Source of the DNA: Alphaproteobacteria bacterium
GTDB taxonomy: Bacteria > Pseudomonadota > Alphaproteobacteria > MPNO01 > UBA830
DNA length: 64,000 nucleotides
Direction: 5' to 3'
NCBI GenBank assembly: GCA_965243135.1
Contig: OZ251539.1
Span: 1,856,001-1,920,000, forward strand
Below are positions 25,132 through 64,000 of this stretch, in pieces. The translations under genes were made by a program, and so were the position numbers. Positions within the stretch are counted from its first letter, which is position 1. Each line of letters starts with the position of its first letter. The notes beneath the pieces were generated by a model. The model was given only the letters and a program-made list of their open reading frames with translations, ran no database searches and was not told where the DNA came from.

Positions 25132-25466
25132 GTTCGTTTCCTTCGAGGCTTTGCGACCGGGTTTTGCGGGAAATCAATCGACGAAGACCGCGAATCGTCG
25201 GCCGACGCGGCGCGATGAACTGCAGGCCCTTTGGCTTCTACCGTCGACGCGGCTCGGGAAGCTTTGCGCAGCGGTCGCGGTTCGCTTCCGCAAGCCGCCG
25301 CCGGACGATGACTCGAGCATCGGAAAGTTCGCCGCCGTCTGCCGAACCGCGCGAGGCGGGACTCCGACGATCCGAGAAGATTTCGCGAAGCAGGAAAGCG
25401 ATACGCCAAGATACCCGCGCCCCTTCGGTCTCCGCGATCCAGATTCCGACGCGAAAGCTGCCGCGG

Positions 25467-27003
25467 TCAGGCGGTCTCGAACTCGAACCCGACGATGTTG
25501 CGCTCTTCCCGTCCGAACTCCATGCCGATCAACCGGCACGCCGAGATGCCGGTACTTGTCCGCGTAGCCGCGCTCCCGCATCTGCGCCAGCGCTTGGCCT
25601 TCGTGCTGTTGGTCCACGACCTTGAACTCGTACAGATGCACGCATCCCGGACTCAGCACCGCCATGTCCAGGCGTCCGCGGGCGGTCGCTTCCTCGACCC
25701 GAACGTCCAGACCCGCCGCCGCGAAGTGCGAGTAGACGAGGGCCGCCCAATAGCCCTCGTAGAGCTCGTTCTTCCGGTGCCAGTCGTGAGGAACGCTCGC
25801 GAAGAACGCCTCGAACAGCGTCCTCACCTTCTCCGGATCGTCCTCCGCCGTCAGCCTGGCCAGCTCCGCCTGCCGCGTCGCCTCCTGCCCCGTCGCCGGC
25901 GCCATGACGCGCAGCAGCCTCTTGTTCAGGCTGAGTTTCACCTCGTAGTTCGGGTAGTCCAGCCGGTAGCGGCTGCCGCCGGCGGCGGCCTCCTCGCCGA
26001 CGATGGTCAGATAGCCGGTCTGGAACAAAAGCGCTTCGGTCGAGATGTCGTCGACGTCGAAGGTCGACAGCAGTTCGTCGTCCGCGACAAGCCCCTCAAG
26101 GGCCGGAGGCGCAACCCGGCGCCGCGACAGAAGGTCGACGAGAAAGCGCGGCGTCCCGGTCTCGAACCAGTGCGCCTTGAATTCGCGCGTTTCGAAAAGA
26201 AGCAGGATGTCGAACGGGTTGTAGACCTTGTCCGCGCCGCGCCAGTTGTAGCCGTTGTACCAGCGCCGGATTTCTTCCCGGTCCAGGCCCTCGAGTTCCG
26301 GAGCGAAGACCGCGTCCAGCTCCGCGTCCGTGTAGCCGCAGATGGCGCTGAAACGCGGATCGAGGGTGATGTCGCGCAGGTTGTTCAGGCCCGAGAAAAT
26401 GCCCGCCTGCGAGAACTTGCTCACTCCCGTCAGGAAAACGAAACGCAGCTGCTCGTCGCAGGCCTTGAGCACCCCGTACAGGCTGCGCAGAAAGTCGCGG
26501 TTGGCCCGCGCCAGTTCCCGGTCGCCGAGCGCGTCCAGAATCGGCTTGTCGTATTCGTCCACCAGAATGACCGCCTGCTGCCCGGTGCGCTCGCGCAGGG
26601 CCGCGATCAGTTCCCGGAAGCGGATCGAAACTCTGGCGCTGCCCGGCTCGATGCCGGCCAGCCTCTCCGCCGCCTTCAGTTGCGATTCCGTTTCTTCCCG
26701 AACCCCGTCCGGGTCGCCGAAATCGCCCCCGCCGAAATCCAGCCGCACGACCGGACGGCGCGCCGACCAGTCCCACCCGTCGTGAACGGCGAGGCCCCGG
26801 AACAGCTCCTCGTTTCCCTCGAACAGCTTCTGCAGCGTGTCCACCAGCAGGGTCTTGCCGAACCGGCGCGGACGCGACAGGAAATAGTACTTGCCCCCTT
26901 CGACGAGGCGGCGCACATGGTCCGTCTTGTCGACGTAGTAGCAGTCCATCCCCCGGATCTCGCGCAGGGAGGAAATGCCGGTCGGAAGCATGCGTCTCGC
27001 CAT
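25467..27003 (-). pseudogene. AAA-ATPase + PD-(D/E)XK nuclease, copy A1, frameshifted in the last ~22 codons
   Basis: YYVDKT, SRPRRFGKT, VDEYDKP, D...EFK motifs. A 5-nt deletion near 25535 (aaccggcacg vs aaccggatcggcacg in A2-A4) shifts the frame past the ancestral stop at 25467, reading to 25174. Confidence 0.8.
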
Positions 27004-27329: not shown

Positions 27330-28868
27330 TCAAGCGGTCTCGAACTCGACGATGTTGCGCTCTTCCCGGCCGAACTCCATGCCGATCAACCGGATCGGCA
27401 CGCCGAGATGCCGGTACTTGTCCGCGTAGCCGCGCTCCCGAATTTGCGCCAGCGCCCGGCCTTCCGGCCCCCCGTCCACGACCTTGAACTCGTACAGATG
27501 CACGCATCCCGGACTCAGCACAGCCATGTCCAGGCGCCCGTGGGCGGTCGCTTCCTCGACCCGAACGTCCAGACCCGCCGCCGCGAAATGCGAGTAGACG
27601 AGGGCCGCCCAATAGCCCTCGTAGAGCTCGTTCTTCCGGTGCCGGTCGTGAGGAACGCTCGCGAAAAACGCCTCGAACAGCGTCCTCACCTTCTCCGGAT
27701 TGTCCTCCGCCGTCAGCCTGGCCAGTTCCGCCTGCCGCGTCGCCTCCTGCCCCGTTGCCGGCGACATGGCGCGCAACAGCCTCTTGTTCAGGCTGAGCTT
27801 CACCTCGTAGTTCGGGTAGTCCAGCCGGTAGAGGCTCCCGCCGTCGGCGGCCTCCTCGCCGACGATGGTCAGGTAGCCGGTCTGGAACAAAAGCGCTTCG
27901 GTCGAGATGTCGTCGACGTCGAAGGTCGACAGCAAGTCGTCGTCCGCGACCATGCTCTCCAGGGCCGGGGGCGCGATCCGACGCCGCGACAGAAGGTCGA
28001 CGAGGAAGGTCGGCGTGCCGCTCCGGAACCAGTGCGCCTCGAACTGGCGACGCCGGAAAAGCAGCAGGACATCGTACGGGTTGTAGACCTTGTCCGCGCC
28101 GCGCCAGTTGTAGCCGTTGTACCAGCGGCGGACCTCCTCCCGGTCCAAGCCCTCGAGTTCCGGGGCGAAAACCGCGTCCAGCTCCGCATCCGTGTAACCG
28201 CAAATGTCCGAGAACTCCGGCTCCAGCGTGATGTCGATCAGGTTGTTCAGGCCCGAGAAAATGCCCGCCTGCGAGAATTTGCTCACCCCCGTCAGGAAAA
28301 CGAAACGCAGCTGCCTGTCGCAGGCCTTGATCGCCCCGTACAGGCTGCGCAGGAAGTCCCGATTGGCCCGCGCCAGTTCCCGGTCGCCGAGCGCGTCCAG
28401 AATAGGCTTGTCGTATTCGTCGACCAGAACGACCGCCTGCCGCCCGGTACGCTCGTGCAGGGCCTCGATCAATTCCCAGAAACGAACCGACGCCTCGACG
28501 GAGCCCGGTTCAAGGCCGGCGCGCCTCTCCGCCGCCGCCAACTGCGCTTCCACGGTTACGCGAACCCCGTCCGGGGCGCAGAAATCGCCCCCTCTGCTGA
28601 AATCCAGCCGCACGACAGGATGGCGCGCCGACCAGTCCCATTCGTCGTGTATGGCGAGACCCCGGAACGGCACCTCGCTTCCCTCGAACAGCTCCTGCAG
28701 CGTGTCCACAAACAGGGTCTTGCCGAACCGGCGCGGACGCGACAGGAAATAGTGCTTGCCGCCCTCCACGAGGCGGCGCACATGGTCCGTCTTGTCGACG
28801 TAGTAGCAATCCCTCGTCCGGATTTCCCGGAAGGAGGATATGCCGATCGGTAGCATGCGTCTCGCCAT
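27330..28868 (-). CDS. AAA-ATPase + PD-(D/E)XK nuclease, copy A2
   Basis: Intact 512-aa ORF with the same motifs. Confidence 0.92.
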   Translation of the reverse strand: MARRMLPIGISSFREIRTRDCYYVDKTDHVRRLVEGGKHYFLSRPRRFGKTLFVDTLQELFEGSEVPFRGLAIHDEWDWSARHPVVRLDFSRGGDFCAPDGVRVTVEAQLAAAERRAGLEPGSVEASVRFWELIEALHERTGRQAVVLVDEYDKPILDALGDRELARANRDFLRSLYGAIKACDRQLRFVFLTGVSKFSQAGIFSGLNNLIDITLEPEFSDICGYTDAELDAVFAPELEGLDREEVRRWYNGYNWRGADKVYNPYDVLLLFRRRQFEAHWFRSGTPTFLVDLLSRRRIAPPALESMVADDDLLSTFDVDDISTEALLFQTGYLTIVGEEAADGGSLYRLDYPNYEVKLSLNKRLLRAMSPATGQEATRQAELARLTAEDNPEKVRTLFEAFFASVPHDRHRKNELYEGYWAALVYSHFAAAGLDVRVEEATAHGRLDMAVLSPGCVHLYEFKVVDGGPEGRALAQIRERGYADKYRHLGVPIRLIGMEFGREERNIVEFETA

Positions 28869-28903
28869 CCGGGCAGTTTACGCCCATGGACGGCGGCGTT
28901 CAA
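28869..28903 (-). promoter_or_regulatory. Sigma70-like leaderless promoter of A2
   Basis: TTGAAC-N17-TAAACT-N6-ATG. Confidence 0.6.
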
Positions 28904-29191
28904 AGCCGCCAGACGTCCGGACGATCAACGCGGGCCGTGCCGAAACGCTCCGAAACCGGGCTTTCTCGCGCGCAATGAAGCCGTTCCCGTAGACATGCGG
29001 GCGGCCACCGAACGCTCCTTGCCATCGTTCGCTCCAGACCGCCGCCGCGACGCTGTCCGGCGACCGACGCTCGCCGGGAAGCCAATTCCCGTGCCATCGT
29101 CGGCTGCCGCCTCTCGTTCCGTTGCCGCGCTCTGAAGTCGCCCTCCAGTCGCTGCGACCCGGATTCCGAGAGGCGGCAAGAGCTGCCGCGA

Positions 29192-30739: not shown

Positions 30740-30774
30740 CCGGGCAGTTTACGCCCATGGACGGCGGCGTTCAA
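30740..30774 (-). promoter_or_regulatory. Sigma70-like leaderless promoter of A3
   Basis: TTGAAC-N17-TAAACT-N6-ATG. Confidence 0.6.
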
Positions 30775-31057
30775 AGCCGACAGCCGTCCGGACGATCAAC
30801 GCGGGCCGTGCCGAAACGCTCCCGAAACCGGGCTTTCTCGCGCGCAATGAAGCCGTTCCCGTGACATGCGGGCGGCCACGGAACGCTCCTTGCCATCGTT
30901 CGCTCCAGACCGCCGCCGCGACGCTGTCCGGCGACCAACGCTCGCCGGGAAGCCAATTCCCGCGCTATCGTCGGCTGCCGCCTCTCGTTCCGTTGCCGTG
31001 AAGTCGCCCTCCAGTCGCTGCGATCCGGATTCCGGGATGCGGCAAGAGCTGCCGCGG

Positions 31058-32605: not shown

Positions 32606-32641
32606 TCGGCAAGAATAGGCCGCCGCGACGGAAACTGTCAA
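32606..32641 (-). promoter_or_regulatory. Sigma70-like leaderless promoter of A4
   Basis: TTGACA-N18-TATTCT-N6-ATG. Confidence 0.65.
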
Positions 32642-49889: not shown

Positions 49890-51419
49890 TCAGGCGGGCT
49901 CGCAATCGAAGCCGACGACGTTGCGCTCCTCGCGGCTGAACTCCACCCCGATCAGGTGGACCGAACGTCCGAGACGACGGTACTTGTCCGCATAGCCCTT
50001 CTCCCGCAACTGCGCGAGCGCGGTCCCCTCCCGCCCGCGCTCCACCACCTTGAACTCGAACAGGTAGACGCCGCCGCCGGCGCGGATCGCCATGTCGGCG
50101 CGCCCCCGGCTGCCGCTGTCCTCGGCCACCGGCTCGAAGCCCTCCATCAGGAAGCAGCTGTGGATGACGCTCGCGTAGTGGGCCTCGTACACCGGGCTGT
50201 TCATGTACCACTGGTGCGGGATGGCGGCGAAGACGCCGCGGAACAGGGTCCCGATGCGTTCGAAGTCGTTCGCCTCCAGCAGTTCGCCCAGCCGCAGGCG
50301 CCCCGTCTTTTTGCGGGCCTCGACCGGGAGCAGTTCTTCCAGCAAGGCCTCGCCCAGGCTCTGGCGCACCTCGAGGTTCGGGTAGTCCAGCCTGTAGCGC
50401 CCGTCCTCCTCGCCGACGATGGTGAGGTAGCCGGTCTGGAACAGAAGCGCCTCGACCGAGATATTGTCCACGTCGAAGGTCGAGAGCAGGCTCTCGCTGC
50501 CGATCATGCCGTCCAGGTCGGGAGTGGGCAGGTCGCGGCGCGCCAGCGTCTCGACCAGGAAGGTCGGCGTGCCGCTATGGAACCAGTAGTTGCCGAACTT
50601 GCGTTTGTCAAACAGCAGCAGGAGGCCGAACGGGTTGTAGACCCTCTCCGGTCCGAGCCAGTTGTAGCCGTTGTACCAGCGGCGGACCTCGTCCCGGTCC
50701 AGGCCCTCGAGTTCCGGGGCGAAGACCGCGTCCAGTTCCGCGTCCGTGCAACCGCAGATGGCGCCGTAGCGCTCGTCCAGCGTGATGTCGTTCAGGTTGT
50801 TCAGGCCCGAGAACAGGCCCGCCTTCGAGAATTTGCTCACTCCCGTCAGGAAAACGAAACGGAGATGCCTGTCGCAGGCCTTGATCACCCCGTACAGGCT
50901 GCGCAGGAAGTCGCGGTTGGCCCGCGCCAGTTCCCGGTCGCCGAGCGCGTCCAGGATCGGCTTGTCGTATTCGTCCACCAGAACCACCGCCCGCTGCCCG
51001 GTGCGTTCGTGCAGGTCCGCGATCAGTTCCCGGAAGCGGACCGAAACTCTGGCGCCGCCCGGCTCGATGCCGGCCCGCCTCTCCGCCGCCTTCAGTTGCG
51101 ATTCCGTTTCTTCCCGAACTCCGTCCGGGTCGCCGAAATCGCCCCCGCCGAAATCCAGCCGCACGACAGGATAACGTATCGACCAGTCCCACCTGCCGTG
51201 CACGGCGAGGCCCCGGAACAGCTCCTCGCTTCCCTCGAACAACTCCTGCAGCGTGTCCACCAGCAGGCTCTTGCCGAACCGGCGCGGACGCGACAGGAAA
51301 TAGTACTTGCCCCTTTCGACGAGGCGGCGCACATGGTCCGTCTTGTCGACGTAGTAGCAGTCCATCCCCCGGATCTCCCGGAGGGAGGAAAAGCCGATCG
51401 GAAGCATGCGTTGCGTCAT
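49890..51419 (-). CDS. AAA-ATPase + PD-(D/E)XK nuclease, copy B1
   Basis: Intact 509 aa; promoter TTGACG-N17-TACCCT-N6-ATG at 51426-51454. Confidence 0.92.
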   Translation of the reverse strand: MTQRMLPIGFSSLREIRGMDCYYVDKTDHVRRLVERGKYYFLSRPRRFGKSLLVDTLQELFEGSEELFRGLAVHGRWDWSIRYPVVRLDFGGGDFGDPDGVREETESQLKAAERRAGIEPGGARVSVRFRELIADLHERTGQRAVVLVDEYDKPILDALGDRELARANRDFLRSLYGVIKACDRHLRFVFLTGVSKFSKAGLFSGLNNLNDITLDERYGAICGCTDAELDAVFAPELEGLDRDEVRRWYNGYNWLGPERVYNPFGLLLLFDKRKFGNYWFHSGTPTFLVETLARRDLPTPDLDGMIGSESLLSTFDVDNISVEALLFQTGYLTIVGEEDGRYRLDYPNLEVRQSLGEALLEELLPVEARKKTGRLRLGELLEANDFERIGTLFRGVFAAIPHQWYMNSPVYEAHYASVIHSCFLMEGFEPVAEDSGSRGRADMAIRAGGGVYLFEFKVVERGREGTALAQLREKGYADKYRRLGRSVHLIGVEFSREERNVVGFDCEPA

Positions 51420-51534
51420 TCGAAGAGGGTAGGCCGCCGCGCCGGAGCCGTCAAGAAGTCGGCGGCGGCAGGCCTGTCTGCGTCCCCTGGCGCGGCAAGC
51501 AGCCGGCAGTTTCCGCGGCGGCCCGGGCGGTACG

Positions 51535-51722
51535 GCGGGTTTTCCGGCGGCGGCCTGAAACGGAGGACGACCAACAAGGAGAGCGCCGCCGCGCCCAGAC
51601 AAGAAGTCCGCCGCGACGCCCGGAAGCGACACGACCGGAAGCTGTCGCCGCGCCCGAAACGGCGAGGTCGACCGCCAGTCCGCGCCTGCGAACGAAGTAG
51701 CGGGAAACCGCGGCCGTGACCA
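51535..51722 (-). pseudogene. Decayed fragment of the MFS gene at 63182-64000
   Basis: Aligns by eye to ~63815-64000 with several short deletions. Confidence 0.8.
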
Positions 51723-51938
51723 GCGGGCGGTCGGCGGGGGGTAGGCGTCGAGGCGCGCCGGCTTCACCCACCTGCTGCCCTTCCGTTCACGCGGCCTCCC
51801 CATTTCCGGCAGACGTAAACTCGTCGACGTCGAGTTCCTCCCGAAGCTCCCGGGGCCCGGCGTCCCTCCGCCGCCGGCCGCCGGGGAATTCCCCCGCTCC
51901 GCCCTCCGGCCGCCGCGACGGCGAAAACGACCGGCTCT
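51716..51938 (-). pseudogene. mutT: mutT (Nudix 8-oxo-dGTPase) relic
   Basis: Fragments EFPGG, RELREELD, YVCRKWGGRVNGREG, WVKPARLDAYP, PADRPLV across frames. Confidence 0.75.
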
Positions 51939-52118
51939 CCCGCCCTGCGGCGCGGAACCCGGAGACGCGCCCGGCCCGCGAAACCTGCAGGGAGACGCCG
52001 CCGGCCCCGAGGCGGCCTCCTCGGCCGGGCGGCCCGTCAAGCCGCGCGACGAACCGGCGGAACCGGCTGCCGTCGCGCGCGGCGTTCTGTCGCGGAGGCG
52101 GCCGTGACGGGAAGCCGT

Positions 52119-53654
52119 TCAGGCGGGCTCGCAATCGAAGCCGACGACGTTGCGCTCCTCGCGGCTGAACTCCACCCCGATCAGGTGGACCGAACGTCCG
52201 AGACGACGGTACTTGTCCGCATAGCCCTTCTCCCGCAACTGCGCGAGCGCGGTCCCCTCCCGCCCGCGCTCCACCACCTTGAACTCGAACAGGTAGACGC
52301 CGCCGCCGGCGCGGATCGCCATGTCGGCGCGCCCCCGGCTGCCGCTGTCCTCGGCCACCGGCTCGAAGCCCTCCATCAGGAAGCAGCTGTGGATGACGCT
52401 CGCGTAGTGGGCCTCGTACTTCGCGACCGGGCTGTTCATGTACCACTGGTGCGGGATGGCGGCGAAGACGCCGCGGAACAGGGTCCCGATGCGTTCGAAG
52501 TCGTTCGCCTCCAGCAGTTCGCCCAGCCGCAGGCGCCCCGTCTTCTTGCGGGCCTCGACCGGGAGCAGTTCTTCCAGCAAGGCCTCGCCCAGGCTCTGGC
52601 GCACCTCGAGGTTCGGGTAGTCCAGCCTGTAGCGCCCGTCCTCCTCGCCGACGATGGTGAGGTAGCCGGTCTGGAACAGAAGCGCCTCGACCGAGATATT
52701 GTCCACGTCGAAGGTCGAGAGCAGGCTCTCGCTGCCGATCATGCCGTCCAGGTCGGGAGTGGGCAGGTCGCGGCGCGCCAGCGTCTCGACCAGGAAGGTC
52801 GGCGTGCCGCTATGGAACCAGTAGTTGCCGAACTTGCGTTTGTCGAACAGCAGCAGGAGGCCGAACGGGTTGTAGACCCTCTCCGGTCCGAGCCAGTTGT
52901 AGCCGTTGTACCAGCGGCGGACCTCGTCCCGGTCCAGGCCCTCGAGTTCCGTGGCGAAGACCGCGTCCAGTTCCGCGTCCGTGCAACCGCAGATGGCGCC
53001 GTAGCGCTCGTCCAGCGTGATGTCGTTCAGGTTGTTCAGGCCCGAGAACAGGCCCGCCTTCGAGAATTTGCTCACTCCCGTCAGGAAAACGAAACGGAGA
53101 TGCTCGTCGCAGTCCTTGATAACCCCGTACAGGCTGCGCAGGAAGTCCCGGTTGGCCCGCGCCAGCTCCCGGTCGCCGAGCGCGTCCAGGATCGGCTTGT
53201 CGTATTCGTCCACCAGAACCACCGCCCGCTGCCCGGTGCGTTCGTGCAGGTCCGCGATCAGTTCCCGGAAGCGGACCGAAACTCTGGCGCCGCCCGGCTC
53301 GATGCCGGCCCGCCTCTCCGCCGCCTTCAGTTGCGATTCCGTTTCTTCCCGAACTCCGTCCGGGTCGCCGAAATCGCCCCCGCCGAAGCTGATCCGCACG
53401 ACCGGATGGCGTATCGACCAGTCCCACTTGCCGTGCACGGCGAGGCCCCGGAACAGCTCCTCGCTTCCCTCGAACAGCCTCTGCAGCGTGTCCACCAGCA
53501 GGGTCTTGCCGAACCGGCGCGGACGCGACAGGAAATAGTAATCGCCCTCTTCGACGAGGCGGCGCACATGGTCCGTCTTGTCGACGTAGTAGCAGTTCCT
53601 CGTCCGGATTTTCCGGAGGGAGGTCATGCCGATCGGAAGCATGCGTTTCGCCAT
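52119..53654 (-). CDS. AAA-ATPase + PD-(D/E)XK nuclease, copy B2
   Basis: Intact 511 aa; promoter TTGACG-N17-TACTCT-N6-ATG at 53661-53689. Confidence 0.92.
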   Translation of the reverse strand: MAKRMLPIGMTSLRKIRTRNCYYVDKTDHVRRLVEEGDYYFLSRPRRFGKTLLVDTLQRLFEGSEELFRGLAVHGKWDWSIRHPVVRISFGGGDFGDPDGVREETESQLKAAERRAGIEPGGARVSVRFRELIADLHERTGQRAVVLVDEYDKPILDALGDRELARANRDFLRSLYGVIKDCDEHLRFVFLTGVSKFSKAGLFSGLNNLNDITLDERYGAICGCTDAELDAVFATELEGLDRDEVRRWYNGYNWLGPERVYNPFGLLLLFDKRKFGNYWFHSGTPTFLVETLARRDLPTPDLDGMIGSESLLSTFDVDNISVEALLFQTGYLTIVGEEDGRYRLDYPNLEVRQSLGEALLEELLPVEARKKTGRLRLGELLEANDFERIGTLFRGVFAAIPHQWYMNSPVAKYEAHYASVIHSCFLMEGFEPVAEDSGSRGRADMAIRAGGGVYLFEFKVVERGREGTALAQLREKGYADKYRRLGRSVHLIGVEFSREERNVVGFDCEPA

Positions 53655-53754
53655 CGGAAGAGAGTAGGCCGCCGCGCCGGAGCCGTCAAGAAATCGGCGG
53701 CGGCAGGCGCGTCCCCTGGCGCGGCAAGCAGCCGGCAGTTTCCGCTGCGGCGGC

Positions 53755-54235
53755 GGGCGTCGGCGGGTTTTCCGGCGGCGGCCTGAAACGGAGGACGACC
53801 AACAGGGAGAGCGCCGCCGCGCCCAGACAAGAAGTCCGCCAGCCGGCGACGCCCGGAAGCGACACGACCGGAAGCTGTCGCCGCGCCCGAAACGGCGAGG
53901 TCGACCGCCAGTCCGCGCCTGCGAACGAAGTAGCGGGAAACCGCGGCCGTGACCAGCGGCAGCGAGACGGCCGCCCGCCCGCCCACAAGTCCGAACGGAA
54001 GGTAGGCGGTTCCGCGGCGAAGGCGGTGCCGCCGGCAGCGAGGGCGCCCGCGGCGAACGGCGCCCCGCAGCGGTCCCTGCCCGCCACCGGAGACCCGACG
54101 GCCACCCAAGGAGGCGGCGGCCTGCGCTCCCGTCCACCCGAGTTCCGACTGCCAAGACGGGAGAACCATGCTCACGGACGACCGCGCGCCGAAAGTGAAG
54201 GCCAGCGCGGCGAAGCAGACGACGGCCGGCGCGCG
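53755..54235 (-). pseudogene. Longer decayed MFS relic (N-terminal half)
   Basis: AVVCFAALAFTFGARSSVSMVLPSWQSELGWT, plus a segment matching 63815-64000. Confidence 0.75.
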
Positions 54236-54464
54236 TCTCGTCGGTCACCGGAGTCGCGCTCCTGCGCCGCGTCGCCCGGCGAAACGCCGGAAATCCGCCC
54301 CGGCGCCGGCCGCGAAACGGCGCGCCGCCGAAAAGGGACGGCCGCAACTCCGGAAGAGCCGCGTCACCGCGCAGCATGGCGACCAGCACTTTGTTGGTTG
54401 CCTCAACCACGCCTGACGGCGTAGCCTCCGACCTTCAGGATCGCGTAGCGCATGCGACGCCGGT

Positions 54465-54680
54465 CCTTCCGTTCACGCGGCCTCCCCATTTCCGGCAGAC
54501 GTAAAGCGGCCAGATGAAAATCGTCGGTGAGACGCGAAGGTGAACGGCGAAAGGCAGATCTCGTCGATGTCGAGTTCCTCCCGAAGCTCCCGGGCCCGGC
54601 GTCCCTCCGCCGCCGGCCGCCGGGGAATTCCCCCGCTCCGCCCTCCGGCCGCCGCGACGGCGAAAACGACCGGCTCTCCA
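54465..54680 (-). pseudogene. mutT: mutT relic (best preserved copy)
   Basis: PVVFAVAAA / RPEG..GEFPGG / RELREELDIDEICLSPFTFASH / DDFHL / PLYVCRKW. Confidence 0.85.
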
Positions 54681-54790
54681 GCCCTGCGGCGCGGAACCCG
54701 GAGACGCGCCCGGCCCGCGAAGCCTGCAGGGAGACGCCGCCGGCCCCGAAGCGGCGTTCTTTCGCGGAGGCGGCCGTGACGGGAAGCCGT

Positions 54791-56297
54791 TCAGGCGGGC
54801 TCGCAGCCGACGACGTTGCGCTCCTCGCGGCTGAACTCCACCAGGTGGACCGAACGTCCGAGACGGCGGTACTTGTCCGCGTAGCCCTTCTCCCGCAGTT
54901 GCGCGAGCGCGCCCCCCTCCCGTCCGCGCTCCACCACCTTGAACTCGAACAGGTAGACGCGCCCGCCGACGCGGATCGCCATGTCGGCGCGCCCCCGGCT
55001 GCCGCTGTCCTCGGCCACCGGCTCGAAGCCCTCCATCAGGAAGCAGCTGTGGATGACGCTCGCGTAGTGGGCCTCGTACACCGGGCTGTTCATGTACCAC
55101 TGGTGCGGGGCGAAGACGCCGCGGAACAGGGTTCCGATGCGTTCGAAGTCGTTCGCCTCCAGCAGTTCGCCCAGCCGCAGGCGCCCCGTTTTCTTGCGCG
55201 CCTCGACCGGGAGCAGTTCTCCCAGCAAGGCCTCGCCCAGGCTCTGGCGCACCTCGAGGTTCGGGTAGTCCAGCCGGTAGTGCCTGTCCTCCTCGCCGGC
55301 GATGGTGAGGTAGCCGGTCTGGAACAGAAGCGCCTCGACCGAGATATTGTCCACGTCGAAGGTCGAGAGCAGGCTCTCGCTGCCGATCATGCCGTCCAGG
55401 TCGGGAGTGGGCAGGTCGCGGCGCGCCAGCGTCTCGACCAGGAAGGTCGGCGTGCCGCTATGGAACCAGTAGTTGCCGAACTTGCGTTTGTCGAACAGCA
55501 GCAGGAGGCCGAACGGGTTGTAGACCCTCTCCGGTCCGAGCCAGTTGTAGCCGTTGTACCAGCGCCGGATTTCGTCCCGGTCCAGGCCCTCGAGTTCCGG
55601 GGCGAAGACCGCGTCCAGTTCCGCGTCCGTGCAGCCGCAGATGGCGCCGTAGCGCTCGTCCAGCGTGATGTCGTTCAGGTTGTTCAGGCCCGAGAACAGG
55701 CCCGCCTTCGAGAATTTGCTCACTCCCGTCAGGAAAACGAAACGGAGATGCTCGTCGCAGTCCTTGATAACCCCGTACAGGCTGCGCAGGAAGTCGCGGT
55801 TGGCCCGCGCCAGCTCCCGGTCGCCGAGCGCGTCCAGGATCGGCTTGTCGTATTCGTCCACCAGAACCACCGCCCGCTGCCCGGTGCGTTCGTGCAGGTC
55901 CGCGATCAGTTCCCGGAAGCGGACCGAAACTCTGGCGCCGCCCGGCGCCGGCCCGCCTCTCCGCCGCCCTCAGTTGCGATTCCGTTTCTTCCCGAACTCC
56001 GTCCGGGTCGCCGAAATCGCCCCCGCCGAAGCTGATCCGCACGACCGGATGGCGTATCGACCAGTCCCACCTGCCGTGCACGGCGAGGCCCCGGAACAAC
56101 TCCTCGCTTCCCTCGAACAGCTTCTGCAGCGTGTCCACCAGGAGGGTCTTGCCGAACCGGCGCGGACGCGACAGGAAATAGTACTTGCCCCTCTCGACGA
56201 GGCGGCGCACATGGTCCGTCTTGTCGACGTAGTAGCAGTTCATCCCCCGGATCTCCCGGAGGGAGGAAAAGCCGATCGGAAGCATGCGTTGCGTCAT
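54791..56297 (-). pseudogene. AAA-ATPase + PD-(D/E)XK nuclease, copy B3, frameshifted
   Basis: 5-nt deletion near 55946 (cccggcgccgg vs cccggctcgatgccgg) plus four in-frame 6-nt deletions; promoter retained at 56304-56332. Confidence 0.88.
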
Positions 56298-56519
56298 TCG
56301 AAGAGGGTAGGCCGCCGCGCCGGAGCCGTCAAGAAGTCGGCGGCGGCAGGCCTGTCCGCGTCCCCTGGCGCGGCAAGCAGCCGGCAGTTTCCGCTGCGGC
56401 ACGGCGGGGAAAAACGCGGGGACGAGCGAACCTGTCGCTCCGCGGAAATCCTGCCCCGCTGAGACGAGCGCGTTCGACGCGCGGCCTGGAGGCAGCGGGC
56501 GGAAGCGAACGCCGACGGC

Positions 56520-56930
56520 TGGCGCCGCCAGCAAAGGCGACGCGCGTCGACAACGATCTCGGCACCGGATTCGCGAACCTCGACGGCAAGGTCGACGCCC
56601 TCGCCGCGGAAACCAGGGCCGACGCAACGCGACGGCAAGCGCCCTCGCCAGGGAAAGCCGCGCGCCTCGAAACCACGACGATTGCCGCGGCAGGCCTCGC
56701 CGCCATACTTGCAGTTGGTCCGCCGCACCCGCGCGCGCGACGACATGCGAGTCCCGGCGGCTACATGCACAGGCATGGCAGCGCCGCACCCGCGCGCGCG
56801 ACGACATGCGCCGCAAGCGGCGAAACGCCTGAACGTCAGGCAACGGTTCCGTCGAACGAGAGCGTCGTCCGGTCGAGCGAGCGGACTTCCGCCGCCGAAA
56901 ACCATGGGCTCGTTCGAAACCGTCAACCGA
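56520..56930 (-). pseudogene. Possible relic of an AMP-binding (acyl-CoA ligase) gene N-terminus
   Basis: ARPDDALV..NR.LTFRRFAA and N.KY..E fragments; heavily frameshifted. Confidence 0.3.
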
Positions 56931-57021
56931 AGCGGCTCGCGAAACCGGAAACGGTGACGGCAGGCGTTGGCCTCCGTTTTTGAACTCCTGACCTCTCCGC
57001 AACATCAAAACGGTCGGTCAG

Positions 57022-57193
57022 CAGCAATTCCCGCTAAGGCGGCCGCATGTCCGGAAGGTGCGCCGAGAAGGCGAAATCACCAAGGGACAAGCCGCCGCGA
57101 CAAATCCCTCAGGCAAATCGCACTACCCGGAAAAATCTACGAAAAATTTTTCTGAAACCCCATATTTTCCAAGGGCCATAGCGGGAATTGCCG
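57022..57193. mobile_element. 172-bp MITE, copy 1
   Basis: TIRs CAGCAATTCCCGCTAAGGC / GCCATAGCGGGAATTGCCG; 9-bp direct repeat GTCGGTCAG at 57013-57021 and 57194-57202. Confidence 0.82.
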
Positions 57194-57239
57194 GTCGGTC
57201 AGCCACCATGCGCGTTGCGCTTCAAACTTGAAGGGGCGC

Positions 57240-57352
57240 TCCTCGACGTCGAGTTCCTCCCTGAGCTCCCGGGCCCGGCGTCTCTCCACCGCCGGCCATC
57301 GGGGAATTCCTTGCCCTGCGGCCGCAGCCACGACGAGAACGACCGGCTCTCC
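57240..57352 (-). pseudogene. mutT: mutT relic (5' part)
   Basis: EPVVLVVAAA, GKEFP, GGETP, RELREELD. Confidence 0.65.
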
Positions 57353-57560
57353 AGCCCTGCGGCGCGGAACCCGGAGACGCGCCCGACCCGCGAAGCCTGC
57401 CGGCGCGCGAGCGCCTGCAGGGAGACGCCGCCGGCCCCGAGGCGGCCTCCTCGGCCGGGCGGCCCGTCAAGCCGTGCGACGAACCGGCGGAACCGGCTGC
57501 CGCCGCGGGCCGAACCCGCGTCGGCGTTCTTTCGCGGAGGCGGTCGTGACGGGAAGCCGT

Positions 57561-58059
57561 TCAGGCGGGCTCGCAGCCGACGACGTTGCGCTCCTCGCGG
57601 CTGAACTCCACCAGGTGGACCGAACGTCCGAGACGGCGGTACTTGTCCGCGTAGCCCTTCTCCCGCAGTTGCGCGAGCGCGCCCCCCTTCCGTCCGCGCT
57701 CCACCACCTTGAACTCGAACAGGTAGACGCGCCCGCCGGCGCGGACCGCCATGTCGGCGCGCCCCCGGCTGCCGCTGTCCTCGGCCACCGGCTCAAGGCC
57801 CTCCAAGCAGCTGGACGCTCGCGTAGTGGGCCTCGTACACCGGGCTGTTCATGTACCACTGGTGCGCGGCGAAGACGCCGCGGAAACAGGGTGCGTTCGA
57901 AGTCGTTCGCCGCCAGCAGTTCGCCCAGCCGCAGGCACCCCGTCTTCTTGCGAGCCTCGACCGGGAGCAGTTCTTCCAGCAAGGCCTCGCCCAGGCTCCG
58001 GCGCACCTCGAGGTTCGGGTAGTCCAGCCTGTAGCGTCCGTCCTCCTCGCCGGGGATGG
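57561..58059 (-). pseudogene. 3' fragment of AAA/PD-(D/E)XK copy B4
   Basis: GEEDGRYRLDYPN...EFK...CEPA with multiple microdeletions; its 5' part is replaced by the intron. Confidence 0.88.
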
Positions 58060-58735
58060 GTAGAGTCGAGGACTGGCGCGTTAGCTTTAGGGTCCGGGTT
58101 CCGTCGCTTTCGCTCCGGGCCTCAGTCCGGCTCCCGTGGCCATGTTTCCAGTCCCCGCTCTCCGAACCGGACGTGCGGATTTCCCGCGCCTCCAGCCCTC
58201 GCCCACGGATGAATTGGTAGCGTTCCCAGAACGGCCGGTCTTCCGGACCCGGGAGTTGCACCGTCTCCCATTTCCGTCTGTTTTCCGCTGTCCAACCCGT
58301 CGCCGAGCCTGTTTACGCCTCGGCAACCCCAGCCTCTCGACCGGGTTCCTTCGCTTGTAACGCTTCCGGGATCTCTGACATGTAGTCGGTTGTTAGGCAT
58401 AGCCCCTTCTCCCTTGCGGCCCCTTTCCTCCGCCGGCGTTACCCGGCTTCTCCGGTACTACGGGCCTCTCCGCCACCCGCCGGCCTGCCCCTCGCGAGGT
58501 TCCGGTTGACTCGTGCGCGTCACCGACAGGGTTTCCCGTGTTGCTGCTTCCTTCATTTTCCATGCGTGCCGACCCCCGGCGGAAACGGTCGGTGCTCTTG
58601 TCGTTCTCTTCCCGACCGTCGGCGGCTTTCCCCTAACCTCAGGAGGGTCAGCTCCCGCATTGACCGTTTCGAGGCCTGGTTCACTGCTCGTTTCGGCCCG
58701 CATGTTCGCTGAGCGGCTTTCGCCGCCCTTTCCCG
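58060..58735 (-). mobile_element. Degenerate ORF-less group II intron remnant
   Basis: Minus strand D5-like GCGGGAAATCCGCACGTCCGGTTC; 3' end CGCGCCAGTCCTCGACTCTAC; D2/3-like GTAGTACCGGAGAAGCCGGGTAACGCCGGCGGAGGAAAGGGGCC; no RT ORF; no 5' GTGCG seen. Confidence 0.8.
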
Positions 58736-59520
58736 CGGAATTGCCGCAAGCGCGGATCCGAGGCGTCGACGACCGGGTCGTGCCCGGCCGCGCCGGTCGC
58801 GAACAGCAGAACCGCGTCGCTGGTCGAGGTGTCTCCGTCGACGGTGATCGAATTGAAGGACTTGTCGGCGCTCCGGGACAGAAGCCGCCGGAGCGCGGCG
58901 GCGCCGACCGCCGCGTCCGTGAAGACGAAGGCCAGCATCGTCGCCATGTCGGGCGCGATCATGCCGGATCCCTTGGCGATGCCGCAGACGACGACTTCGG
59001 CGTCTCCGACGCGCGTCTTTCTCCACGACCCCTTCGGAAAGGTGTCGGTGGTCATGATGGCCTCCGCGGCCTCTTTCCAGCCATGCGGGGCCAGGGAGTT
59101 CCGCAGGCTTTCCAGCGAGTTCCGGATGCGCTCGTCGGGAAGGGTCTCGCCGATCACGCCGGTCGAGGCGACGAACACGTGGGATCCGGAGCACGACAGC
59201 ACGTCCGCCGCTTTCTCGACGGTGCGTTCGACCGACTTGCGGCCCTCGAGTCCGGTGAAGGCGTTGGCGTTTTCGGCGTTCACGATCAGCGCCCGGGCCT
59301 CGCCGGCTTCGAGCGCCTGCCGGCACCAGTCGACCGGCGCGGCCGCCGTCCGGGATTTGGTCAACACGCCGGCCGCCCTGGTTCCGGGCGCGAGCGACGC
59401 GAGAAACACGTCCAGCCGTCCGGCGTAACGCAAGCCGCAACAGGCGGCCGCGAGCGAAACGCCCGGGACGGGAGGCATGTCCGGAAAGCCGCCGGGGGCG
59501 AGCGGCGAGATCTTCTTCAT
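58735..59520 (-). pseudogene. argJ: argJ (ornithine acetyltransferase), 3'-truncated at about codon 265
   Basis: STGVIG, IMTTDT, KGSGMIAPDMATML, SFNSITVDGDTSTSD; the frame runs into intron sequence and stops at 58681. Confidence 0.85.
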
Positions 59521-59581
59521 GCGCCTGTCGATTCTCTCGAGCGGCCCGTAACGGCCGTATCGTTTATGCGCACCGAAACGA

Positions 59582-59681
59582 GGCTACTGCAACCTCCGCA
59601 AAAACAAGTCATTCCGTCCGGGCCGTCGCGGCGGGCCGGCTTCGCGGGGGCTACCGCAACCTCCGCAAAAACAAGTCATTC
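59582..59681. repeat. Two 33-bp direct repeats separated by 34 bp
   Basis: GGCTACYGCAACCTCCGCAAAAACAAGTCATTC at 59582-59614 and 59649-59681. Confidence 0.75.
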
Positions 59682-59683
59682 AG

Positions 59684-59855
59684 CAGCAATTCCCGCCAAG
59701 GCGGCCGCATGTCCGGAAGGCGCGCCGAGAAGGCGAAATCACCAAGGGACAAGCCGCCGCGACAAATCCCTCAGGCAAATCGCACCACCCGGAAAAATCT
59801 ACGAAAAATTTTTCTGAAATCCCATATTTTCCAAGGGCCATAGTGGGAATTGCCG
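59684..59855. mobile_element. 172-bp MITE, copy 2
   Basis: Near-identical to 57022-57193 with the same right flank GTCGGTCAG; left flank GTCATTCAG. Confidence 0.82.
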
Positions 59856-59899
59856 GTCGGTCAGCCACCATGCGCGTTGCGCTTCAAACTTGAAGGGGC

Positions 59900-60012
59900 G
59901 CTCCTCGGCGTCGAGTTCCTCCCTGAGCTCCCGGGCCCGGCGTCTCTCCGCCGCCGGCCGTCGGGGAATTCCTTGCCCTGCGGCCGCCGCGACGACGAGA
60001 ACGACCGGCTCT
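59900..60012 (-). pseudogene. mutT: mutT relic (5' part)
   Basis: EPVVLVVAAA, RPQGKEFP, RELREELD. Confidence 0.65.
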
Positions 60013-60211
60013 CCAGCCCTGCGGCGCGGAACCCGGAGACGCGCCCGACCCGCGAAGCCTGCCGGCGCGCGAGCGCCTGCAGGGAACCGTCGTCGGCCGC
60101 GGCGGCCTCCTCGGCCGGGCGGCCCGTCAAGCCGCGCGACGAACCGGCTCCCGCCGCAGGCCGAACCGCGGGCGGCGTTCTTTCGCGGAGGCGGCCGTGA
60201 CGGGAAACCGT

Positions 60212-61750
60212 TCAGGCGGGCTCGCAATCGAACCCGACGACGTTGCGCTCCTCGCGGCTGAACTCCACCCCGATCAGGTGGACCGAACGCCCGAGACGGC
60301 GGTACTTGTCCGCATAGCCCTTCTCCCGCAACTGCGCGAGCGCGATCCCCTCCCGCCCGCGCTCCACCACCTTGAACTCGAACAGGTAGACGCGCCCGCC
60401 GGCGCGGACCGCCATGTCGGCGCGCCCCCGGCTGCCGCTGTCCTCGGCCACCGGCTCGAGGCCCTCCATCAGGAAGCAGCTGTGGATGACGCTCGCGTAG
60501 TGGGCCTCGTACTTCGCGACGGGGTTGTTCATGTACCACTGGTGCGGGATGGCGGCGAAGACGCCGCGGAACAGGGTCTCGACGCGCTTGAAGTCGTTCG
60601 CCGCCAGCAATTCGCCCAGCCGCAGGTTCTCCGTCTCCTCGCGGGCCTCGTCCGGGAGCAGTTCTTCCAGCAAGGCCTCGCCCAGGCTCTGGCGCACCTC
60701 GAGGTTCGGGTAGCCCAGCCGGTAGCGCCCGCCCTCTTCGCCGACGATGGTGAGGTAGCCGGTCTGGAACAGAAGCGCCTCGACCGAGATCCTGTCCACG
60801 TCGAAGGTCGAGAGCAGGCTCTCGCTGCCGATCATGCCGTCCAGGCGGGGAGTGGGCAGGTTGCGGCGCGCCAGCGTCTCGACCAGAAAGGTCGGCGTGC
60901 CGCTCTCGAACCAGTACGGGCGGAACTCGCGCCGTTGAAACAGCAGCAGGAGGCCGAACGGGTTGTAGACCCTCTCCGGCCCGCGCCAGTTGTAGCCATT
61001 GTACCAGCGGCGGATCTCGTCCCGGTCCAGGCCCTCGAGTTCCGGGGCGAAGACCGCGTCCAGCTCCGCATCCGTGCAGCCGCAAATATCCGAGAACTCC
61101 GGCGCCAGCGTGATGTCGTTCAGGTTGTTCAGGCCCGAGAACAGGCCCGCCTTCGAGAATTTGCTCACTCCCGTCAGGAAAACGAAACGGAGATGCCTGT
61201 CGCACTCCTTGATAACCCCGTACAGGCTGCGCAGGAAGTCCCGGTTGGCCCGCGCCAGCTCCCGGTCGCCGAGCGCGTCCAGAATCGGCTTGTCGTATTC
61301 GTCCACCAGAACCACCGCCCGCTGCCCGGTGCGTTCGTGCAGGTCCGCGATCAGTTCCCGGAAGCGGACCGAAACTCTGGCGCCGCCCGGCTCGATGCCG
61401 GCCCGCCTCTCCGCCGCCTTCAGTTGCGATTCCGTTTCTTCCCGAACTCCGTCCGGGTCGCCGAAATCGCCCCCGCCGAAGCCGATCCGCACGACCGGAT
61501 GGCGCGTCGACCAGTCCCACCTGCCGTGCACGGCGAGGCCCCGGAACAGCTCCTCGCTTCCTTCGAACAGCTCCTGCAGCGTGTCCACCAGCAGGGTCTT
61601 GCCGAACCGGCGCGGACGCGACAGGAAATAATATTGACCGCCCTCGACAAGGCGGCGGACATGGTCCGTCTTGTCGACGTAGTAGCAGTCCATCTCTCCC
61701 CGGATTTTCCGGAGGGAGGTCAAGCCGATCGGAAGCATGCGTTTCGCCAT
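60212..61750 (-). CDS. AAA-ATPase + PD-(D/E)XK nuclease, copy B5
   Basis: Intact 512 aa; promoter TTGACG-N17-TACTCT-N6-ATG at 61757-61785. Confidence 0.92.
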   Translation of the reverse strand: MAKRMLPIGLTSLRKIRGEMDCYYVDKTDHVRRLVEGGQYYFLSRPRRFGKTLLVDTLQELFEGSEELFRGLAVHGRWDWSTRHPVVRIGFGGGDFGDPDGVREETESQLKAAERRAGIEPGGARVSVRFRELIADLHERTGQRAVVLVDEYDKPILDALGDRELARANRDFLRSLYGVIKECDRHLRFVFLTGVSKFSKAGLFSGLNNLNDITLAPEFSDICGCTDAELDAVFAPELEGLDRDEIRRWYNGYNWRGPERVYNPFGLLLLFQRREFRPYWFESGTPTFLVETLARRNLPTPRLDGMIGSESLLSTFDVDRISVEALLFQTGYLTIVGEEGGRYRLGYPNLEVRQSLGEALLEELLPDEAREETENLRLGELLAANDFKRVETLFRGVFAAIPHQWYMNNPVAKYEAHYASVIHSCFLMEGLEPVAEDSGSRGRADMAVRAGGRVYLFEFKVVERGREGIALAQLREKGYADKYRRLGRSVHLIGVEFSREERNVVGFDCEPA

Positions 61751-61819
61751 CGGAAGAGAGTAGGCCGCCGCGCCGGAGCCGTCAAGAAGTCGGCGGCGGG
61801 GGCGAGCAGGCCATGAGCG

Positions 61820-62921
61820 TTTGGTACCGGACATATCGTCTGTTACTGACAAACGCACCTTCCGGCGCTGGCGCGACGAGGCGGAGGGCGCGGAAGGGTT
61901 GTACGACCGCCGCCTGGGCCGGGTCTCGGCGCGCCGGGCCGACGTGGACGAGGCGGCGCAGGTTCCGGAGTTGTTCGACACCCGGTACCGGGACTTCAAC
62001 GCCAGGCACTTTCACGAGAAGCTGGTCGCCTGCCATGGCGTCCAGCGCAGCTACGTCCGGCTGACCTTGCAGGCCCATGGCCGCGTGCGAGCCGCTCCGC
62101 GGCGCCCACCGGCGCAAGCGCCCGCGGCGGGCGCCGCACCAGGACGGCTCGCGCCACGAGTGGGTGTCGGGTCGGCAGTGGGCGTCACCATGGACGACGC
62201 CACCAGCGAGGTCTACTCGGCCTTCTTCGTCGCCGAGGAAGGCACTTTTTCCAAGCGCTTCGCGAGGCGGCCGGCGAGCGCGGGCTGTTCCGCTCGCTCT
62301 ACCGCGGCAGCCACTACTTTCACACGCCCGAGGCCGGCGGCAAGGTGGACAAGGACAACCCGACCCAGGTCGGGCGCGCCCTTCGCCGACTCGGCGCACG
62401 TCGCCGCCTGCTCGCCCGAGGCCCGCGGGCGCTCGGAGGTTCGGCACCCTGCAGAAGCGCCTGCCCCAGGAACTCAGGCTCGCCTCCGACATGGCCGAGG
62501 CCAACCGCTTCCTCAAGGAGGTCTACCTGCCGGACCGCAACCGGCGCTTCGCCACCCCGCCCGAGGGGGTCGGCCTTCGTGCCCTTCGCCGGCACCCTGG
62601 ACGACCTGCGTCCACGAGGACCGTCTCGAACGACACGCGGTACAATGGACGCACCCTGCAGGCCGACCGTCACCACTACGTCAAGGCCAGGGTCCACGAG
62701 TACCCCGACCACGCCCTTGCCGTCTTCCACGGCCCCGGACGCCTCGCTCTCTACCGGGCCGACGGGTCTCCGACCGCAACCCGGCAGGCCGCGTGACCCG
62801 CTTCGACGCGCCGGAAGCCCGAAGTGGACAGCCGCTTCGCGCCTGACCACTTCCCCACAGGCCCAACCACCACAACGGAAGCGGTCAATTTGGTACATAC
62901 CAGTTCAAAATGTTCTTGACA
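61820..62921 (+). mobile_element. Decayed ISNCY-like DDE transposon
   Basis: Fragments HQDGSRHEW, TMDDATSEVYSAFFVAEEGT, FGTLQKRLPQELRL, EANRFL, VHEYPD in shifting frames; IS-like end ...AATGTTCTTGACA. Confidence 0.8.
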
Positions 62922-63181
62922 CTCGCTCCACCGGGGGCACACGGCGGATCTTTTCTCCGAGTAAAAGCTCGTTTGGCGCGGCAAGCAGCCGGCAGTTTCC
63001 GCAGCGGTACGGGCGGCAGGCGGGGAAAGCGCGGTGACGAGCGAACCTGTCGCTCCGCGGAAATCCTGCCCCGCTGCAGGGGGCGAGCACGTTCGACACG
63101 TTCAACGCGCAGCCTGGAGGCCACGGCGGGCGCGAGCGCCGCCGCCGAGCGGCGCAAGGCTGGCGGCCGCGCGGCGGCGAC

Positions 63182-64000
63182 TCACGCCGCCGCTACGGCG
63201 CGCCTTTCCGGAACCAGCAGGGCAAAGACCCCGGCGAGCGCGGCAAGCGCGACCGCGATCCACCAAAGTCCGTCGTATCTCGCGGTCAGATCGAAGATCC
63301 ATCCGCCGAGCAAGACCCCTGTCGCCGCGCCCAGGGAATGGCCGCCGAACAGCAGCCCGAGCGTGAGGCCCATAACTCGCAAGCCGATATGCGTCGCGAC
63401 GATGTTGGCGATCACCGGGAAGGTGGCGAAGTTGAGAACGCCGAAGAGGGCCGCGAAGAGAAACAGGACGGAGATGTCGGCCGCGACGAACAGCAGCACG
63501 ACGAAGGCCAGGGCGCGGCCGAAGAACATGCTCGCCAGCAGTCGCGGGCGATGGACATGGTCCGCCATCCACGAAAACAGGACGACGCCGGCGAGATTGC
63601 CGATCCCGTGAGCCCCGTAGGCGGCGGAGCCCTCGACGAGGGTGAAGCCGCAGGTCAGGGCGTAGGGAATGAAGTACACGTCGATTATCCCGGCCGTCGT
63701 GAAGCCGCACAGCGCGAAGGCGGCGAGCAGCAGCAGAAAGGTCCGTTCCCGAAACAGGGACTTCAGGCGGTCGGACAGGGAACCGTCGCCTGCCGCCGCG
63801 GCGGCGGGCGGCGGCGGGTTTTCCGGCGACGGCCTGAAACGAAGGAGAACCAGCAGGGAGAGCGCCGCCATCGCGGCGCCCAGGATCAGATAAGAAGTCC
63901 GCCAGCCGAGCGACGCGATCATGACGCCCAGAAGCGACAGGACAGGAAGCTGTCCTCCGGACGCGCCCGAAACGGCGAGGCCGATCGCCAGTCCGCGCCC
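63182..64000 (-). CDS. MFS transporter (5' part lies beyond the window)
   Basis: Frame open to the window edge; RGLAIGLAVSGASGGQL motif C; multiple TM segments. Confidence 0.9.
   Translation of the reverse strand, partial: GRGLAIGLAVSGASGGQLPVLSLLGVMIASLGWRTSYLILGAAMAALSLLVLLRFRPSPENPPPPAAAAAGDGSLSDRLKSLFRERTFLLLLAAFALCGFTTAGIIDVYFIPYALTCGFTLVEGSAAYGAHGIGNLAGVVLFSWMADHVHRPRLLASMFFGRALAFVVLLFVAADISVLFLFAALFGVLNFATFPVIANIVATHIGLRVMGLTLGLLFGGHSLGAATGVLLGGWIFDLTARYDGLWWIAVALAALAGVFALLVPERRAVAAA

Follow-up and report, generated by a model that had tools for sequence, protein, structure and literature searches.

A probable mutational process removing five to seven base pairs, often at AT, from the repeated DNA of an uncultured alphaproteobacterium

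Copies of a repeated nuclease gene in the genome of an uncultured alphaproteobacterium, present in sponge metagenomes, differ from one another by small gaps of nearly fixed length. We analysed a stretch of 64,000 nucleotides (the window), corresponding to bases 1,856,001–1,920,000 of the single-contig genome (6,103,318 bases in total, 65% G+C), together with the repeats of the whole genome, and conclude that a real and apparently ongoing mutational process probably removes 5, 6 and, less often, 7 consecutive base pairs. The lost piece begins with 5'-AT on one or the other strand in more than half of the events, usually after a C. A preliminary description of the window had proposed an unusual fixed-length, motif-biased deletion process in relaxed DNA; the length spectrum, the AT enrichment and the gap loads of intact and broken genes all point to such a process, near-fixed in length and filtered out of working genes. 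Selection clears working genes of events of 5 and 7 bases and of most of those of 6, so that the pattern is seen in pseudogenes, dead insertion sequences and relics.

The repeat gene, called AAA in the preliminary description, lies on the minus strand and encodes a protein of ~516 residues that combines an AAA-ATPase_like domain (PF09820) with a nuclease domain, PDDEXK_9 (PF08011). By tblastn, this nuclease family occupies 173 loci genome-wide, often in tandem arrays. Among them, 122 are full length, of which 95 align as one piece (intact copies) and 27 are split across several frames (broken copies).

Length spectrum and sequence anchor of the deletions

Events of this kind are detectable in repeats only, and the results therefore cover repeats rather than unique neutral DNA. 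Aligned with MAFFT and scored against the majority, the 122 full-length nuclease copies show 77 distinct gaps: 6, 3, 5, 5, 14, 37 and 2 at lengths 1–7, and 1, 3 and 1 at lengths 9, 12 and 13. Gaps of 5–7 bases thus make up 53 of the 77, all within 1.55 kb. A self-comparison of the genome, with the family masked over 236,398 bases, yielded 1,091,833 bases of other repeats (18% of the genome), in which gaps de-duplicated by their flanks numbered 630, 123, 78, 37, 720, 782, 114 and 23 at lengths 1–8; 1616 of the 2613 gaps were 5–7 bases long. The peak was kept under stricter de-duplication (587, 638 and 103 gaps of 5, 6 and 7 bases) and also when the largest repeat cluster was removed (75, 12, 12, 0, 42, 44, 11 and 1 at lengths 1–8).

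As for the sequence lost, AT stands at an end of the piece in 55.7% of the 1616 events (AT being scored in any equivalent placement of the gap); for 32,320 placements drawn at random within 150 bases the share is 7.8%, which makes the enrichment 7.1-fold. The share of events with an AT end is 0.62, 0.55 and 0.61 at lengths 5, 6 and 7, compared with 0.15, 0.00, 0.12 and 0.00 at lengths 2, 3, 4 and 8. Since the anchor is confined to 5–7 bases, we regard these events as a class of their own and not as the tail of a broader spectrum. The anchor is one-sided: among 396 unambiguous five-base events, AT occurs at both ends in 5, where 39.4 would be expected. Over the null, pieces start with ATC 16-fold, ATT 12-fold, ATA 8-fold and ATG 3.6-fold more often. 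C is the preferred base before the piece and G is often its last base, while a leading G is strongly depleted. Summed over events, the logo c[ATCGAT]g looks like a palindrome, which reflects a mixture of two orientations. A symmetric transposase target, suggested by this composite, was ruled out by the one-sidedness of single events. GATC, and with it MutH, was likewise rejected as the target, given the depleted leading G and the presence of GATC near just 12.9% of events. The bias to GAT and ATC reported in the preliminary description holds as an enrichment (ATC or GAT at an end in 34.4% of events versus 2.8% at random), but the core of the motif is AT at one end, not GATC.

Junction homology is slight: among the 720 five-base events, 604 allow the gap to slide by 0–1 base, as do 561 of the 782 six-base events, and losses of tandem-repeat units account for only 39 of the 1616 events. 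Replication slippage or microhomology-mediated deletion would leave junction repeats and a frequency falling steadily with length, and neither was found in these repeats. The genome-wide survey of indel lengths and motifs that the preliminary description had called for thus gives a 5–7 base peak with an AT anchor, unlike the ordinary geometric, microhomology-driven expectation. Excision of hairpin loops was suggested by two cases in the window and dropped for lack of stem enrichment over the null: flanking stems of at least 3 pairs accompany 3.5% of five-base and 3.6% of six-base events, versus 3.9% and 4.7% of random placements.

The repeats include at least eight identical copies of a 2.8-kb insertion sequence and at least 15 of a 1.65-kb one. 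Such a repeat load marks a genome whose decay is at an early and still bloated stage.

Deletions in the window and in a dead insertion sequence

Within the window, the nuclease family forms four tandem copies (A1–A4) at 25.2–32.6 kb and five copies or relics (B1–B5) at 49.9–61.8 kb, the latter interspersed with relics of the 3' end of an MFS transporter gene, an ArgJ fragment and unidentified relics. The MFS transporter gene itself, on the minus strand, lies from 63.2 kb onwards and extends past the window end. An alignment of the nine nuclease copies, with gaps mapped to window coordinates, and comparisons of the relics with their paralogues gave the following junctions.

63870-63875 and 63884-63889, plus strand: atcgcg and gatcag (6 bases each), in the intact MFS gene (minus strand) and absent from both MFS relics
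51513..51686, minus strand: MFS relic 1 (3' end), without both 6-base strings; additional 5-base gaps at 51612 and 51646
53742..53919, minus strand: MFS relic 2 (3' end), without both 6-base strings; gaps of 6 bases at 53845, 5 at 53879 and 7 at 54005
25174..27003, minus strand: A1, nuclease copy without atcgg near its 3' end (25536/7), stop codon shifted; in-frame 6-base gap at 25761/2
27330..28868, minus strand: A2, intact nuclease copy; in-frame 6-base gaps at 27349/50 and 27623/4
49890..51419, minus strand: B1, intact nuclease copy; single in-frame 6-base gap at 50190/1
52119..53654, minus strand: B2, intact nuclease copy; undeleted reference for B3 and B4
54800..56297, minus strand: B3, frameshifted nuclease copy; 5-base gap at 55946/7, 6-base gaps at 55109/10, 55079/80, 54842/3 and 54805/6
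57570..58111, minus strand: B4, truncated nuclease relic; gaps at 57890/1, 57866/7, 57838/9, 57813/4, 57805/6, 57612/3 and 57575/6
60212..61750, minus strand: B5, intact nuclease copy; undeleted reference for B3 and B4
58100..59700: relic block with the ArgJ fragment; gaps of 6, 6, 7, 6 and 5 bases versus paralogues at 58197, 58356, 58573, 58678 and 59613
61800..63100: relic block, origin unassigned; 20 gap rows of 5–7 bases versus paralogues of 88–91% identity

Removing atcgcg and gatcag from the intact MFS sequence reproduces the relic sequence with one mismatch. On the plus strand, B3 lacks tcgat (55946/7), atcgaa (54805/6), ccgatc (54842/3) and gatggc (55109/10), and B4 lacks atcagg (57805/6), tggat (57813/4), gggatg (57866/7) and cccgat (57890/1), the last being better read as a loss of 6 bases with a gain of one T. 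The B4 gaps at 57612/3 and 57575/6 are common to B3. All 13 deletions localised in the preliminary description were present at the places it gave. Of the exceptions without the motif that it had listed, ttcgcg (plus strand; lost in A1, A2, B1, B3 and B4) and acccga (lost in A2) were recovered, and cgctc was not found in the window. Besides 3- and 12-base differences at the level of subfamilies, the gaps that distinguish the nine copies are 5 or 6 bases long, with hardly any of 1–2. In the block at 61800..63100, several of the 20 rows are alternative placements of one gap, and shorter gaps occupy just four rows, of 4, 4, 2 and 1 bases; the long frames of this relic (61.8–63.1 kb) gave no Pfam match. 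The unique genes of the window are long open frames with full-length Pfam matches, in line with the preliminary description, which had noted no such frameshifts in housekeeping genes.

The part of the window from 49.9 to 64 kb is filled with gene relics in which the deletion pattern shows. The family regions, at 25174-32612 and 49890-61750, carry the AAA-ATPase_like and PDDEXK_9 (DUF1703) domains. The B3–B4 pair is duplicated again ~10 kb downstream, at 64700-68300 in window coordinates, just past the window end (genome 1920928-1924239), with the same broken tblastn pattern.

The nuclease gaps are deletions, as the additional bases keep the reading frame, most copies have them, and both subfamilies contain them. 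Polarity was further examined in a dead insertion sequence with five copies, in which 24 of 26 internal gaps are 5–7 bases long. Its copies lie at the following genome positions.

2254640-2256900: dead insertion-sequence copy
1217026-1219246: dead insertion-sequence copy
3060450-3062433: dead insertion-sequence copy
4452847-4455028: dead insertion-sequence copy
695111-697332: dead insertion-sequence copy

With a copy 10% diverged as outgroup, ten gaps were polarised as deletions, five common to copies Y, Z and V and five private to V, and two further gaps were ambiguous; where the outgroup is decisive, it always gives deletions. The extra bases in the ten polarised events are ancestral and not derived, as they would be in a transposon footprint or a target-site duplication. 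The flanks of resident active elements carry an 8-bp duplication (one 2.8-kb copy) and a 9-bp duplication (one 1.65-kb copy), indicating that the target cuts of these elements do not fit the deletions. Partner counts were also tried as a guide to polarity and set aside, being confounded by the copy number of inherited gaps.

Copies X and V of the dead element differ by 17 substitutions and 12 gaps of 5–7 bases, and megablast aligned two copies with 0 mismatches and 8 gaps over 2108 bases. The events are thus about as frequent as base substitutions in neutral DNA. The ratio of gaps to substitutions declines at higher divergence, which may reflect divergence accrued while the copies were still selected. 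Two copies share six identical deletions, from which it follows that the element spread after its breakage.

Elements of the dead family are ~2.2 kb long and encode, in separate frames, DruA-like and DDE transposase domains; one copy sits within a nuclease gene copy. In the nuclease family, 12 dispersed and mutually diverged broken copies share a 5-base frameshift at about residue 82 (genome 976418, 1257029, 1276535 and nine more). It could mark a lineage that went on multiplying after its death, a mutational hot spot, or a gene whose splitting is tolerated.

Mutational process or assembly artefact

Several features of the data would agree with an assembly or base-calling artefact, a systematic error that omits 5–7 bases where a motif is modified or hard to read and that escapes correction in repeats alone. 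Near-identical repeat pairs (<0.1% substitutions) carry 112 gaps of 5–7 bases versus 30 mismatches, gap density per kb changes little between 0.5% and 10% divergence, and the names of related metagenome-assembled genome records point to hybrid long-read pipelines. Four lines of evidence from the assembly itself nevertheless speak against it. Eight copies of the 2.8-kb and 15 copies of the 1.65-kb insertion sequence, the hardest DNA to polish, are mutually identical and, among the pairs listed, free of 5–7 base gaps, indicating that stochastic errors in repeats are very rare. Some nuclease copies have lost a piece that others retain in an identical local context, which does not fit a deterministic error. 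Per copy, six-base gaps average 0.62 in intact nuclease genes (n = 95) and 2.89 in broken ones (n = 27), and five-base gaps 0.01 and 1.67; the 4.7-fold excess of six-base gaps, which are neutral to the frame, is what relaxed selection predicts. Finally, the shared gaps of the dead insertion sequence nest in agreement with its substitution tree.

Contigs assembled from other studies provided an independent check. Public runs containing the window stretch come from five studies in all, sponge metagenomes among them, and we used Logan contigs of four runs from four studies (X10, X14, X1 and X5) over 55400-59600. These have no recorded library type, and contigs of paralogues are placed on the stretch too. 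The share of depth carrying the letters that are missing from the window was as follows.

55946, extra TCGAT: X10 727.4/1700.8; X14 16.8/16.8; X1 36.8/92.5; X5 0/220.9
58355, extra TCTGCA: X10 0/1117.6; X14 22.5/38.3; X1 0/51.1; X5 0/0 (no coverage)
58678, extra CTCAAT: X10 851.7/2112.5; X14 9.7/38.6; X1 0/67.5; X5 0/18.5

All three sites are covered without the extra letters by contigs of runs other than the best holder, and at 55946 the undeleted letters are absent, in at least part of the depth, from contigs of X10, X1 and X5. Errors should be blind to selection and to copy age and missing from independent reads, and this is not what we observed, the reads being represented here by contigs and not by raw reads of the source sample. 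The argument of the preliminary description against a uniform sequencing error is thus strengthened by the identical insertion sequences, the unequal gap loads and the contigs from other studies, and we consider an artefact very improbable.

Still less credible is a reading without mutational bias, in which recombination and gene conversion have distributed a small number of old in-frame indels among the copies. Many gaps are indeed common to up to 12 copies, a 6-base gap at the ..GCGAAT.. / ..CGCGAA.. site is present in both subfamilies, and recombination among paralogues of the family is reported for another symbiont (PMC6387759). Yet the 1.55 kb of the gene hold 53 distinct gaps of 5–7 bases versus 5 of 3 bases, the 14 five-base gaps break the frame, the same spectrum is found in non-coding relics and in the dead insertion sequence, and recombination leaves the AT motif unexplained.

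Candidate mechanisms, relatives and known signatures

We tentatively propose that the pieces are lost by a nick, a short strand loss and resealing over a bulge, a possible but doubtful mechanism with a hypothetical enzyme. An endonuclease would nick one strand 5' of an AT step, 5–7 nucleotides would then be lost from the nicked strand, and resealing would leave a bulge in the opposite strand. MutS would miss loops of at least 5 bases, a limit familiar from work on E. coli, and this would set the sharp lower length limit.

Repair genes were compared in this genome and those of four other species of the genus, one of the five genomes being 93% complete. MutS is present in all five, this one included, as is RNase HII. 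Ku (PF02735) and ATP-dependent ligase (PF01068) were found in none of the five, nor was type IB topoisomerase (PF01028), for which a control search matched Deinococcus. The mismatch endonuclease EndoMS/NucS was also sought, since the archaeal enzyme cuts both strands and leaves five-nucleotide 5' overhangs (PMC4838380). Canonical NucS was not found in the five genomes; two weak partial NucS_C matches occur in this genome, and none in the other four. The better match (31.7 bits) covers residues 78–147, a 70-residue stretch of a 407-residue protein. Together, these negative searches speak against the classical end-joining, topoisomerase/ribonucleotide and NucS routes. The 407-residue NucS_C-like protein is of PD-(D/E)XK type, is encoded at genome positions 2512555-2513778 (L046 718-1941, minus strand) and is a candidate nuclease.

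The preliminary description had given nuclease- or modification-directed cleavage followed by end-joining as an example. A double-strand cut with staggered 5–7 base overhangs at the AT step, trimmed and joined as blunt ends, would suit the narrow lengths and the clean junctions without microhomology; five-base staggers are known from EndoMS/NucS, and the genome holds the 173 loci of the PD-(D/E)XK family. We nevertheless think this route unlikely. Classical end-joining finds no support in the five genomes, where neither Ku nor the ATP-dependent ligase was found, and the NucS matches are only partial. Fill-in of the overhangs should moreover yield tandem duplications of 5–7 bases with the same motif, but the 39 candidates are not AT-anchored, and no collateral changes were seen at the deletion junctions. 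Alternatively, a primase might start at AT and its primer of 5–7 bases be removed, with the gap sealed unfilled. A one-sided, purine-first start motif and a counted length resemble primases, those of phages T4 and T7 make primers of 4–5 bases, and the junctions are clean. Bacterial DnaG primers are ~10–12 bases long, however, and the events show no replication-arm bias (84 vs 78, and 130 vs 136), and we hold such a primer-length skip to be highly improbable. The last possibility is a dedicated enzyme that disables repeated or foreign DNA by 5–7 bp holes at AT steps, a deletion counterpart of fungal repeat-induced point mutation (RIP), which could be performed by the amplified AAA-ATPase/PD-(D/E)XK nucleases, whose surroundings hold 95% of raw events, or arise as their collateral. 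We regard this, too, as rather unlikely.

A link between the deletions and the amplified nucleases, raised in the preliminary description, is favoured by this same concentration of raw events in the repeat mosaic that holds the nuclease genes; against it, a sister species with few, all broken, copies also shows 5–6 base gaps. In this sister (G002; 6.2 Mb, 2 contigs), four aligned nuclease copies differ by five gaps of 5–6 bases and otherwise just by a homopolymer length. In all four, at loci L003, L007, L011 and L014, a 7-base gap lies at the site of the 5-base gap shared by 12 copies in the present genome. In a further species (G004, 22 intact copies), the nine intact copies compared show mostly 1–2 base gaps, about one 5–7 base event being expected there at the intact-copy rate found here. 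An orthologue indel spectrum across the four species was abandoned, housekeeping DNA being only 72–77% identical and thus too distant. For a housekeeping protein, the closest named records are uncultured Alphaproteobacteria at 65–73% identity. PMC6387759 describes 25 paralogues of the same nuclease family in a Cardinium symbiont as one of the largest expansions and gives 9.8% as the share of species with at least 10 copies.

Several observations weigh against a general AT-anchored process or against the proposed nick-and-reseal mechanism. As to the counts, 95% of raw events fall within one single-linkage repeat cluster, the relic mosaic around the nuclease genes, and this clustering cannot separate old neutral DNA that happens to sit there from a process that acts near nuclease genes. 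Gaps of 1–4 bases exceed those of 5–7 bases in 37 of the 60 repeat families with short gaps, and the event counts are not independent, as inherited gaps of diverged copies are scored repeatedly. Of the 1528 events with at least 4 partners, 685 have the extra piece in fewer than half of the partners, and many events thus lack a firm polarity. As to the motif, 38% of unambiguous events have AT at neither end, and a k-mer-by-offset scan for a distant recognition site returned just one repeated homologous site. Gaps of 2–4 bases show no clear AT excess, with shares of 0.06, 0.08 and 0.22 where 0.08 is expected by chance, which weakens the idea of one process filtered by repair. The five events in the four copies of the sister species also lack a clear AT motif, with one ending in AT and three of five having microhomology. 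The contig check covers three sites among the rows listed, the B4 junctions not being individually among them. As to the mechanism, no nicking enzyme was found for it, and the MutS loop-size limit on which it leans is carried over from E. coli.

Known small-deletion signatures share some of these features. Type IB topoisomerase produces, in yeast and human cells (ID4), deletions of 2–5 bp at embedded ribonucleotides in short tandem repeats. Those deletions are likewise small and narrow in length, and an enzyme makes them by incising one strand twice before the strand is rejoined over the gap; here, by contrast, 5–7 bp are lost (mode 5–6) with 0–1 base of microhomology and an AT start, the tandem-repeat context with 2–5 bp losses was not found in these repeats, and type IB topoisomerase was found in none of the five genomes, while RNase HII is present in all. 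Loss of the overhangs left by EndoMS/NucS would delete 5 bp, whereas six-base events are here as common as five-base ones, in a genome with MutS and with neither canonical NucS nor end-joining genes found. In ordinary pseudogene decay, 1-base homopolymer events dominate, and the spectrum declines with length and relies on microhomology. As there, deletions exceed insertions and gather in pseudogenes and dead mobile elements; unlike there, we see a separate mode at 5–6 bases, a trough at 2–4, little microhomology and a sequence motif. RIP introduces C-to-T changes into repeated DNA. Heavy, rapid damage to repeated or mobile DNA beyond ordinary substitution is common to both, as in the dead insertion-sequence pair with 8 gaps and 0 mismatches, but the changes here are deletions and repeats are the sole place where the events can be detected. 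To our knowledge, small-deletion signatures described so far all differ in length, context and enzymology, and no description of such an indel spectrum was found among the matches listed in a full-text literature search. In our judgement, the deletion signature is of a new kind.

If real, the pattern is a bacterial mutational signature that resembles the work of an enzyme: its length is almost fixed, a sequence motif anchors the piece, the junctions lack homology, and in neutral DNA its rate rivals that of base substitution. Software that calls pseudogenes or models indels with 1-base frameshifts in mind will misinterpret genomes of this kind. The signature directs attention to a DNA-processing activity yet to be described, which could be traced by comparing lineages that show the signature with lineages that do not. 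It would explain the breakage and erosion of genes in this symbiont, and would remove AT-richer pieces from a GC-rich genome.

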